Source: an uncultured archaeon
Lineage (GTDB): Archaea; Iainarchaeota; Iainarchaeia; Iainarchaeales; 0-14-0-20-30-16
Assembly: GCA_964480435.1 (NCBI GenBank)
Contig: CAYZSS010000002.1
Span: 17,654 to 49,653, forward strand
Direction: 5' to 3'
DNA length: 32,000 nucleotides
The position numbers were made by a program, and so were the translations under genes. How positions within the stretch are numbered: position 1 is the first letter of the stretch; every line of letters starts with the position of its first letter. A model generated the notes under the pieces. The model worked only from the letters and a program-made list of their open reading frames with translations, had not been told where the DNA came from and did not search any database. Shown one piece after another: positions 2,867 to 25,613 of this stretch.

Positions 2867-2959
2867 AGGTTTTGGCAAACCTAACATTTTTTCAAAAGGC
2901 TGGACGCAGGGAGAGGGATTCGAACTGCCCTTTTAGGAAAAGGGTAAGTTGCCCAAAAA
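2867..2959 (-). pseudogene. tRNA-Ser remnant: a leader-like hairpin fused directly to the T-loop and acceptor 3' strand, followed by the trailer
   Basis: 2867-2925 repeats 2976-3034 (59 nt, 1 mismatch). That block covers tRNA-Ser positions 53-73 plus 38 nt of trailer. 2926-2959 is about 85% identical to the leader at 3098-3134 that precedes the intact tRNA-Ser. tRNA positions 1-52 are missing. Confidence 0.6.
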
Positions 2960-3013
2960 TGAATCCCTCTACATGAGGTTTTGGCAAACCTAGCATTTTT
3001 TCAAAAGGCTGGA

Positions 3014-3097: not shown

Positions 3098-3300
3098 CTG
3101 CCCTTTTTACAAAAAGGGTGAGTGGCCCAAAAAAGGCCATATCCGCAAATCAAAGATTTGGGATATTCCTTATTAAAGATATTATTCCTGGGCAAATTAA
3201 TAAAAATACATCCATAAAAACAATATAAAAATCGTTAAGGAGTTTTATACCTCCAAATTCTTTCTTTTTAGCAAACCAGAAAAGGGCCTTTATGGCCCAT

Positions 3301-3346
3301 GTTTTCTTTACAGACTGTAGCTTTCTTTTTTGAAAAGAAAGCTTAG
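3301..3346 (-). repeat. tRNA-trailer motif, copy D (polypyrimidine arm, polypurine arm, spacer, second polypurine run)
   Basis: The minus strand reads ctaagctttcttttcaaaaaagaaagctacagtctgtaaagaaaac. It begins 4 nt after the tRNA-Gly discriminator and is followed by the hairpin gggcc-ataaa-ggccc plus TTTT. Confidence 0.6.
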
Positions 3347-6222: not shown

Positions 6223-6310
6223 CAAGGTTTTATTAAAGTATCCTTACTTTTTTATTATATCTTATGGGGTTATAGTGTAGCGGCTAGCACTTCAGGCTCC
6301 AGACGCAACC

Positions 6311-6362
6311 TTTTCTTTCTTTGAAAAGAAAGAAAATCTTAGCTTCACCAAAAGAAAGAAAC
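6311..6362 (+). repeat. tRNA-trailer motif, copy A, located inside the tRNA-Trp intron
   Basis: The sequence is ttttctttctttgaaaagaaagaaaatcttagcttcaccaaaagaaagaaac. It starts 9 nt after the end of exon 1 and is about 85% identical to copy B. Confidence 0.7.
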
Positions 6363-6405
6363 ATAACCTTTTGGGGAGTGAGTGTGATGGCGGAGTTAAT
6401 TTGTA

Positions 6406-6499
6406 AAAATTAGCGATGATGATAATTGCAGGTAATAAACTTTATGTTTAGTCAATTAAGGGTTGCCAAGCTGAACACAGCGAAGGCTGACCCAATTTT
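6406..6499 (+). ncRNA. Candidate box C/D sRNA embedded in the tRNA-Trp intron
   Basis: A box C-like ATGATGA lies at 6416-6422. CTGA occurs at 6471-6474 and 6487-6490. A terminal stem pairs AAAATT (6406-6411) with AATTTT (6494-6499). The region is locally GC-rich. I found no convincing C' box or guide-target pairing. Confidence 0.3.
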
Positions 6500-6728
6500 G
6501 GCAGACGGTGCCTTTCAAGAAGCCAATTTTGTGAAAACAAAATTGCTTCAGGACCTAAAGAACTCTTTTGGAAGAAGCAAATTCCCTTAGGGAATTTCTT
6601 CAGCCACAGAAATACTTTTGCTTTACACAAAAGTAATTTCTTTGCAAGAGCAAAAGGTTCTTTTTGTTATTAAAAGGCTCGGGAGACACCTGCGGACCAG
6701 GGTTCGAGTCCCTGTAACCCCACTATTC

Positions 6729-6785
6729 TTTTTCTTTCTTTGGAAAAGAAAGGAAAAAGCATAAGTTCACCAAAAAGAAAGAAAC
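6729..6785 (+). repeat. tRNA-trailer motif, copy B
   Basis: The sequence is tttttctttctttggaaaagaaaggaaaaagcataagttcaccaaaaagaaagaaac. It starts 7 nt after the tRNA-Trp discriminator. Confidence 0.7.
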
Positions 6786-7367: not shown

Positions 7368-7381
7368 AAAAAAGAATTAAA

Positions 7382-7465
7382 CCACGAAGTGGCTTTTTCG
7401 CGAACCTTTTGGAAAAAGGCTCCCACGAAGTGGCTTTTTCCCAAGGCTTTTTTGAAAAAAGCCTT
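7382..7465. terminator. Bidirectional terminator region between the convergent CYTH and thermosome genes
   Basis: Two identical 18-nt units, ccacgaagtggctttttc (7382-7399 and 7423-7440), each form the hairpin CCAC-GAA-GTGG followed by T5. Two palindromes are also present: ccttttggaaaaagg (7405-7419) and aaggcttttttgaaaaaagcctt (7443-7465). The latter overlaps the thermosome stop codon. Confidence 0.5.
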
Positions 7466-17778: not shown

Positions 17779-17888
17779 AATGTAAAATAGTGTGTGTAAG
17801 ATATAAAAAGCTGTCCTTTTAGAAAAAAGTATGAGTGCCCCAAAACACCCTGCGGGCGCTACCCTTTTCAAAAAGCCTTTAAGAAGAG

Positions 17889-25240: not shown

Positions 25241-25398
25241 ACAAATTTTTGGAATAATACAAACACCCCATATTTCTTTTAAGAATTAAACTAAACATCT
25301 CTTTTTTAAACGTTTTCCTTAGAAATATATTTAGTAAGTTGCTGATTTCCAAAAAGAGAAATCCCAACAGACACATAAAACAAGTTTTATGAGAGTAT

Positions 25399-25471
25399 AG
25401 TCCGATAGTGTAGGGGTCTATCACTCGGGGCTTTGAACCCCGAGACCGGAGTTCGAATCTCCGTCGGACTA
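25399..25471 (+). tRNA. tRNA-Gln (anticodon TTG), A1-U72 first pair, no encoded CCA
   Basis: The sequence is AGTCCGATAGTGTAGGGGTCTATCACTCGGGGCTTTGAACCCCGAGACCGGAGTTCGAATCTCCGTCGGACTA. The anticodon arm is CGGGG-CTTTGAA-CCCCG. Confidence 0.9.
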
Positions 25472-25564
25472 TAATGGGATCTTTAGATCCCAATATCCCT
25501 TGGATATCCGCGCTGTTTTCCCGAGGCTTTTTCATAAAGCCTCTTCGGATGTCCGTCGGACTAT
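25460..25564 (+). repeat. 13-nt direct repeat TCCGTCGGACTAT (25460-25472 and 25552-25564) flanking a 79-nt structured GC-rich insert
   Basis: The first copy is the tRNA-Gln T-stem/acceptor 3' end. The insert contains the hairpins GGGATC-TTTA-GATCCC, ATATCC-CTT-GGATAT and GAGGCTTT-TTCAT-AAAGCCTC. Confidence 0.75.
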
Positions 25565-25613
25565 TCTTTTCTTTTTAGAAAAAAGAAAAGCCTAAGCTTG
25601 CCAAAAGAAAAAC
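25564..25613 (+). repeat. tRNA-trailer motif, copy C
   Basis: The sequence is ttcttttctttttagaaaaaagaaaagcctaagcttgccaaaagaaaaac. It starts directly after the second copy of the tRNA-Gln 3' end and is followed by the hairpin gtggg-acaag-cccac. Confidence 0.65.

Follow-up and report, generated by a model that had tools for sequence, protein, structure and literature searches.

The motif that borders tRNA exons in this archaeal stretch is best explained, with a probability of roughly 55%, as a structure-constrained, copy-number-variable repeat that is specific to Iainarchaeota-type DPANN archaea and confined almost wholly to the discarded parts of pre-tRNAs, with the copy inside the tRNA-Trp gene (copy A) as cis-spliced cargo. 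Its sites are the loops of bulge-helix-bulge (BHB) introns just after the 5' splice site and 3' trailers and, in inverted form, 5' leaders and the 3' ends of introns. Such a repeat would spread by insertion, or by recombination between tRNA loci, and would persist because RNase P, RNase Z and the splicing endonuclease cut it from the RNA; copy A would be transcribed through and removed as part of the intron. Selection for a folded form in single-stranded or supercoiled DNA may keep its three-block symmetry, this form presumably being a hairpin plus a third strand, the latter in the purine motif on the sense strand and in the pyrimidine motif on the opposite one.

The window, i.e., the whole stretch of 32,000 nucleotides that was analyzed (G000:C2:17654-49653), belongs to a 724-kb assembly of 30 contigs with ~31% GC and 77% completeness, in which ARAGORN run with introns finds 33 tRNA genes. 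Two genomes of the same genus (G001 and G002) were compared with it at orthologous tRNA loci. The repeat spans ~50 nt and consists of a pyrimidine arm (Y; e.g., TTTTCTTTCTTT), a loop of 0 to 4 nt, a first purine block (R1), a spacer of ~12 nt and a second purine block (R2). Searching the window for TTTCTTT-N0-10-AAAGAAA-N8-26-AAAGAAA returned six overlapping matches at exactly four loci, compared with none in 100 dinucleotide shuffles. These are copies A to D, listed with related modules around tRNA-Ser(GGA).

6309 to 6361, plus strand: copy A, in the tRNA-Trp intron (Y 6309-6322, R1 6323-6336, spacer 6337-6349, R2 6350-6361)
6726 to 6784, plus strand: copy B, tRNA-Trp 3' trailer (Y, R1, spacer CATAAGTTCACC, R2)
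25564 to 25612, plus strand: copy C, native trailer of tRNA-Gln(UUG), displaced downstream
3300 to 3343, minus strand: copy D, tRNA-Gly(UCC) 3' trailer (hairpin AGCTTTCTTTT/AAAAGAAAGCT, spacer, R2 AAAGAAAA)
2978 to 3013, minus strand: tRNA-Ser(GGA) trailer, a diverged family member (AGCCTTTT/AAAATGCT, TAGGTTTGCC, AAAA)
3099 to 3133, minus strand: inverted (leader-type) module adjoining the tRNA-Ser(GGA) 5' end
2869 to 2959, minus strand: leader-type module, 20-nt duplicate of the tRNA-Ser 3' part and second trailer-type module

A sequence-only reading of this DNA had reported four copies at these places, lying 0 to 9 nt past exon 3' ends, and both points hold: copy A starts 7 nt past the end of tRNA-Trp exon 1 (6302), B begins 3 nt beyond the tRNA-Trp discriminator at 6722, D begins 6 nt after tRNA-Gly(UCC), and C is flush with a diverged 21-nt duplicate of the tRNA-Gln 3' part. 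Its estimate that A and B are about 85% identical is close to the 83% (49 of 59 columns) that we obtained by alignment, the other pairs of copies being 63 to 77% identical. Its view that tRNA-Ser uses a different kind of trailer did not survive, since a module HMM hits the tRNA-Ser(GGA) trailer at window positions 2978-3009 with E = 4.7e-7 and places it in the same family. A second family of small hairpins with covarying GC stems and a fixed loop (e.g., GGGCC-ATAAA-GGCCC and GGGGC-ATAAA-GCCCC) is present at 3280-3299 on the minus strand, as it is after many other copies, and occurs inverted, with loop TTTAT, directly 3' of Arg, Met and Gln tRNAs.

The three blocks are tied to one another by an unusual symmetry. 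R1 is reverse-complementary to Y, and R2 mirrors R1, which makes it the parallel complement of Y. The spacer consensus TGTAAGTTGCCC recurs across families of the order, and a CTGCCC box on the exon side opens most copies in relatives. Eighty three-block copies from G000 and its relatives display 32 run-length patterns (e.g., T4CT3CT3, T6CT4, T3CT5, T3CTCT5 and T3CT4CT3), and in these 80 copies R2 tracks the pattern of Y in the same reading direction, copy by copy. The mean mirror match is 10.9 nt, versus 8.73 nt with partners permuted (maximum 9.26 in 300 permutations, z ~15), although the copies are related by descent and such covariation counts overstate the number of independent events. Block covariation was counted with a custom script, the search model of the repeat (model R1) being sequence-only, as MAFFT left the arms out of register and RNAalifold found no pairs. 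Between G000 and G002, the orthologous copies of A have changed in step in all three blocks.

The sequence-only reading had recognized the pyrimidine arm, the complementary purine arm, the spacer and the second purine run, all of which are present; it had taken the second run for a direct repeat of the first, and here it erred, since this block is a mirror. Its proposal of two mutually exclusive hairpins is disfavored for the same reason: among 64 asymmetric copies, the mirror register fits better in 51 and the direct register in 3, with 10 ties. Pairing of Y with R2 as an alternative hairpin was ruled out because the third block keeps the mirror register. A long-range helix between spacer arms, joining leader to trailer or the two ends of an intron, was likewise rejected, as the arms lack covariation beyond UUUUGG/CCAAAA; leader and trailer modules are seldom found on one tRNA.

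Intrastrand triplexes have just such a layout, with a mirror purine block beside a Y/R hairpin, and the repeat has the three blocks that characterize potential intrastrand-triplex (PIT/ITx) repeats, so that triplex formation may be proposed from symmetry alone. Following the usual definitions of triplex motifs (PMC7583470), the putative third strand would lie antiparallel to R1 in the purine motif on the motif strand and would adopt the pyrimidine motif on the complementary strand. Computed as DNA, the hairpins by themselves have folding energies of -8.4 to -9.5 kcal/mol, a calculation that models Watson-Crick pairs only. A mirror third block would be a rare natural example of selection for triplex-forming potential.

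The association with tRNA genes extends to the whole genome. A strict detector that demands at least 8 nt of exact match in each of the three blocks found 13 copies in the 724 kb of G000 and 1 in 20 shuffled genomes (~0.05 per genome). Each of the 13 directly adjoins an exon border of a tRNA or a duplicated tRNA piece. Strict copies in sense orientation follow exon 1 of tRNA-Trp and tRNA-Tyr and the 3' ends of the Trp, Gly(UCC), Ser(UGA) and Cys tRNAs; others follow the duplicated 3' ends of tRNA-Gln and tRNA-Ser(GCU); and inverted ones precede the Val, Lys(CUU) and Glu(CUC) tRNAs, an uncalled tRNA on C20 and exon 2 of tRNA-Tyr. A profile of the inverted form gives 63 hits in G000, about half of them within 10 nt of a tRNA border or fragment. 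This profile also matches trailers on the opposite strand; therefore, the trailer motif and the "leader" module represent a single family that occurs in both orientations. The suggestion that the motif is a small element targeting tRNA 3' ends was the closest of the earlier alternatives, but it missed the inverted copies at 5' ends and before exon 2. Wherever a copy stands, its hairpin end faces the exon, in 13 of 13 cases in G000, 16 of 16 in G001 (11 sense trailers, plus 4 leaders and 1 pre-exon-2 copy, all antisense) and 17 of 17 in unrelated public metagenome-assembled genomes (MAGs) among the matches listed. Such strict orientation of the hairpin toward the exon suggests that some process senses how tRNA genes are built.

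The tRNA-Tyr copies lie in a gene (L031, C9:27449-27781) that ARAGORN calls tRNA-Asn(GTT); its loop reads CUGUAG-A with the intron at 37/38, and it is most likely tRNA-Tyr(GUA), no other Tyr gene having been found in G000. Its 258-nt intron opens with a trailer-type copy and closes with an inverted one, and the gene lies ~100 nt from the RNase P RNA gene. Among the few copies away from tRNAs are two tandem leader-type modules at window positions 7380-7465, each after CCACGAAGTGG, between convergent protein genes. A further leader-type module, at 17813-17846 on the minus strand, is followed closely by a distinct TATA-like box (TTTTTATATC) and, 27 nt beyond that box, by the start of a protein gene; here the promoter is not the module itself.

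Placement and symmetry can also be read together at the DNA level. A tentative interpretation is that the repeat is an intrastrand-triplex (H-DNA-like) device or mobile unit that recognizes the borders of tRNA genes, namely, the ends of the acceptor stem and the splice site in the anticodon loop, and whose insertion creates or enlarges tRNA introns. Weighing against the main reading, the repeat could be linked to no transposase, no integrase and no target-site duplication, and no Y1 transposase was found in G000 (77% complete), G001, G021 or G022. Mobilization by IS200/IS605 or RAYT enzymes was rejected on this ground, the five IS200-type copies of G007 ending in unrelated GC hairpins, and a link of casposase or Cas1 to the long duplications was dropped because Cas1 occurs in G007 only. 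Comparison of the empty tRNA-Gly(GCC) trailer of G000 with the filled one of G001 defined neither ends nor target duplications, as the downstream flanks are not alignable. By analogy with MALAT1, the inverted form just upstream of the RNase P site could instead make an RNA U-A-U triple helix that caps the upstream RNA.

The repeat family occurs across Iainarchaeota-type MAGs. It stands 1 to 8 nt after exon 1 in canonical introns of 70 to 150 nt in G007, G010, G015, G021, G022, G033, G038 and public MAGs, within Ser, Gly, Pro, Arg, Tyr, Trp, Lys, Glu and Cys tRNAs, and after the 3' ends of His, Ser, Ala, Pro, Arg, Trp and Lys tRNAs; introns of G038 and G007 hold an inverted pair of motifs plus a central hairpin in a unit of 130 to 150 nt. 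Of 83 matches examined from a pattern scan of public genomes, 54 lack the motif, most bacterial hits being due to chance, and the full motif appears, among the matches listed, only in MAGs named Iainarchaeum, "ainarchaeum," Forterrea or AR10 or in unnamed archaea. Rfam 15, at gathering and relaxed thresholds, returned only tRNA hits and chance-level matches, with no family for the repeat, and full-text literature searches retrieved nothing on the context of the motif in DPANN or Iainarchaeota.

Copy number runs from ~3 to ~35 per genome (model search matches: 6 in G022, 17 in G021, 54 in G007 and 36 in G000), and presence differs between genomes of one genus, the Gly(GCC), Gln(CUG) and Asp trailers carrying the motif in G001 but not in G000. 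This variability weighs against another interpretation, a rather unlikely one, in which the motif is a host-functional pre-tRNA element whose exon-side hairpin aids folding or processing, or whose conserved spacer is bound by a host protein; it could keep U- and A-rich flanks sequestered, present the BHB or bar exonucleases from the flanking RNA. Conservation of the spacer and the CTGCCC box across many families speaks for such a role, and in the tRNA-Ser intron of G022 CTGCC can supply the outer helix of the BHB. Orthologous tRNA-Gly(GCC) leader hairpins differ by compensatory changes. Moreover, the tRNA-Ser(GGA) intron carries the motif in four families, and the copy in that of G022 is structurally perfect though the genome is copy-poor, a combination that fits a host-level function as well as selfish persistence. 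However, motif presence is tied to no tRNA identity, congeners differ at several orthologous sites, tRNA-Trp of G001 lacks both A and B, and copy number varies about tenfold. Both orientations occur, so that a single RNA-level role cannot cover all copies, and an RNA hairpin role leaves the mirror-symmetric third block unexplained. G000 encodes one splicing endonuclease, at C12:19993-20241. Absence of RNase P as the cause of special leaders was considered and discarded: its RNA gene is present (C9:27888-28116), so leaders need no special logic. Modules are absent from the genes for RNase P RNA, SRP RNA and 5S RNA in G000.

At tRNA-Gln(UUG), an insert and a duplicate separate copy C from the gene.

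25398 to 25472, plus strand: tRNA-Gln(UUG), intact
25473 to 25543, plus strand: 71-nt hairpin-module insert (GGGATCTTTAGATCCC, AATATCC/GGATAT, leader-type end TTTTCCCGAGGC...AAAGCCTC)
25544 to 25564, plus strand: 21-nt duplicate of tRNA-Gln from T-loop to 3' end, with 2 mismatches, one breaking a T-stem pair

In G001, the motif lies directly at the intact 3' end of tRNA-Gln(UUG), a locus that shows the unfilled state of the site where G000 has its insert. It follows that copy C is the native trailer and that insert (71 nt) and duplicate (21 nt) are secondary additions in G000. Similar structures, a hairpin-module insert of 70 to 90 nt followed by a 10- to 21-nt duplicate from T-loop to 3' end, were observed at six tRNA genes (Gln, three Arg and two Ser), located in the window at 25473-25564 and 2869-3013 and elsewhere in G000 at C1:50050-50139, C8:24370-24457, C15:5460-5534 and C10:2495-2610. 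tRNA-Thr(GGU) on C10 has the mirror layout, an 18-nt copy of its 5' end lying upstream of it.

Partial duplication of the tRNA 3' end is what an att scar leaves, and it is found at the Gln gene, the three Arg genes and the two Ser genes. The modules might accordingly be scars of integrase-mediated integration into tRNA genes, the duplicated pieces being att sites. The span from T-loop to 3' end is the classical att sublocation within tRNAs, a mirrored 5' duplicate exists at Thr(GGU), and the arrangement resembles the model of tRNA disruption by an inserted element put forward for Caldiarchaeum tRNA-Thr (PMC3293823). We nevertheless regard this origin as unlikely: the inserts measure only 70 to 90 nt and hold no ORF, no integrase-bearing element lies between the repeats in G000, and the single tyrosine recombinase of this genome is sited elsewhere, on C5. 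Most motif copies, in introns and simple trailers, have no duplication, and integration leaves both the three-block symmetry and the fixed orientation unexplained.

An equally improbable proposal is that of a promoter or insulator cassette, in which the inverted form is a tRNA promoter or a bidirectional terminator plus insulator and the trailers are the same cassette reversed. Leader-type modules do lie at a fixed 2 to 5 nt before ~15 tRNA 5' ends, often after TTATACTTAAGCGAAG-like TATA and purine-rich boxes, and the tandem pair at 7380-7465 between convergent genes would suit an insulator. Yet the T/A part of the hairpin is centered ~13 nt before the mature 5' end, too near for a TATA box; the module at 17813-17846 has a distinct TATA box after it; a promoter aimed into a tRNA from its 3' side, or placed before a 20-nt tRNA fragment, has no evident use; and the motif inside introns argues against efficient termination. 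Upstream of ~8 tRNA genes of G000 (e.g., C18:110-160 and C9:13380-13440), the leader-type module is itself preceded by a conserved box, either TTATACTTAAGCGAAG or a GGAATATCC...GGATATGG hairpin, which may be the real tRNA promoter region.

Copy A raised the question of whether tRNA-Trp is one gene or two.

6266 to 6302, plus strand: tRNA-Trp(CCA) exon 1 (ARAGORN -i; BHB cofold)
6303 to 6687, plus strand: tRNA-Trp intron, 385 nt at position 37/38
6688 to 6722, plus strand: tRNA-Trp exon 2 to discriminator (ARAGORN; BHB cofold)

ARAGORN with introns calls a single tRNA-Trp at 6266-6723 with a 385-nt intron at 37/38. In a cofold of the junctions, the anticodon stem (CAGG/CCUG) is followed by a 3-nt bulge (ACA), the CUCC/GGAG helix of 4 bp and another bulge; on the 5' side, the AGA bulge is possible with an outer helix of 2 bp. 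The intron thus has the makeup of a canonical archaeal BHB, i.e., position 37/38, two 3-nt bulges and a 4-bp helix. Its sequence is mosaic, comprising copy A, a conserved core (~6375-6440), other dispersed repeats (~6509-6647) and an inverted, leader-type module whose hairpin loop is interrupted in G000 by ~133 nt of other repeats, its halves lying at ~6487-6512 and 6665-6687. The core is the only part of the intron kept in the three congeners; it contains C/D-box-like strings (GTGATGG and GCGATGATGA), as in euryarchaeal tRNA-Trp introns, and gave nothing above chance against Rfam (sR39, E = 4.2). The segment at ~6509-6647 is another dispersed repeat, with 75 to 81% identical copies on contigs C22, C3, C8 and C27 of G000 upstream of other tRNAs.

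Promoter and exons of tRNA-Trp are common to G000, G001 and G002, the acceptor pair 6:67 being U-A in G000 and C-G in the other two, a compensatory difference. The interior of the gene varies among them. G001 has an 88-nt intron with neither copy A nor the leader-type module, and a plain TTTTTT trailer stands in the place of copy B, whereas the 268-nt intron of G002 holds copy A and an intact leader-type module. Copy A is a lineage-specific gain, and its nearest relative is the trailer of tRNA-Asp in G001 (90% identity).

If the motif were an archaeal terminator, exon 1 would be released alone, and tRNA-Trp would be a tandem split tRNA joined by trans-splicing. The Y arm is indeed T-rich (T4-T5) and sited where G001 has its plain T-run, a leader-type module stands just before exon 2, and the motif is found 3' of many tRNAs. 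In Nanoarchaeum equitans, the halves of split tRNAs lie at separate loci with their own promoters and join through complementary GC-rich sequences of 12 to 14 nt. tRNA-Trp resembles these genes in that a tRNA half adjoins non-tRNA sequence and a BHB forms at the junction; it differs in that its exons are 385 nt apart on one strand, share a single upstream promoter conserved in the three congeners and form their BHB in cis. No separate promoter for the 3' half was found, nor any TATA-like box 24 to 30 nt upstream of exon 2, and the halves lack long joining complementarity of the N. equitans type, with only 2 bp of outer helix past the BHB. In the motif-filled introns of 70 to 86 nt in Ser, Gly, Pro, Arg, Glu and Lys tRNAs of relatives, some with T5-T6 runs, the motif plus ~20 nt reach exon 2; no room is left for a promoter, so RNA polymerase must read through the motif, T5-T6 runs included. 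Several other T4-T5 runs also occur within the tRNA-Trp intron. The intact BHB, the congener without copy A, the obligatory read-through and the missing TATA-like box together make it unlikely that copy A is a terminator splitting tRNA-Trp, and the split-gene scenario raised by the sequence-only reading can be set aside as highly improbable.

Termination at trailers is a separate matter. A T-run directly follows the gene there, as in archaeal oligo-T terminators (T5 in trailers B and C, T4 in D), and replaces the plain T-run, so that the T-rich arm of the trailer copies may double as a candidate oligo-T stop. The same sequence also occupies 70- to 86-nt introns of essential tRNAs, which polymerase must transcribe through, and these intron copies argue, if indirectly, against efficient termination by the motif. 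We know of no archaeal terminator that includes a hairpin, a spacer and a mirror block. A T-rich hairpin that follows a tRNA exon is not necessarily a terminator.

Returning to the reading of the motif as a tRNA-border repeat, its closest counterparts in form are the bacterial BoxC/PIT/TMECO repeats, potential intrastrand-triplex sequences with no known function (Holder et al. 2015, PMC4666352). Both groups are dispersed, intergenic three-block repeats that allow a hairpin plus a third strand, vary in copy number and context, and have no known promoter or terminator activity or function. PIT/TMECO repeats are bacterial, GC-richer and have no tRNA association (the word "tRNA" is absent from PMC4666352), whereas the repeat described here is archaeal and A/T-rich, carries a conserved 12-nt spacer and occupies tRNA borders in fixed orientation. 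In behavior, the shared introns of Thermoproteales and the Caldiarchaeum model would be the nearest analogs. As the work of Fujishima et al. (2010) is presented in PMC4033280, related introns are common to different tRNA genes in Thermoproteales ("intron transposition"), similar sequences in different tRNA species implying gain by copying; against that account, the Iainarchaeota sequence stands out as a defined three-block repeat that sits at 37/38, is also found in trailers and leaders and belongs to a DPANN lineage. REP/BIME elements and MITEs are likewise short, palindromic, dispersed units, occurring singly or in inverted pairs (here, the ~130- to 150-nt units in introns of G038 and G007) and in mosaics with other hairpins, with covarying stems. 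The present repeat departs from them in that no cognate RAYT/Y1 or defined target-site duplication was found and in that it targets a structural boundary of tRNA genes, not intergenic DNA at large.

For genome annotation, the repeat accounts for tRNA finders missing or miscalling genes in these archaea. On the origin of tRNA introns, a 2026 preprint reporting a census of Asgard tRNA genes states that "how they arrive remains open" (10.64898/2026.10.13.758758). Across a whole order, many canonical introns consist mainly of a recognizable repeat, and the same repeat is found at trailers and leaders; with filled and empty sites in related genomes, it offers a concrete system in which intron gain by insertion or copying can be tested. 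If the repeat were a triplex device that recognizes tRNA gene borders, it would be the first concrete vehicle for tRNA intron gain.
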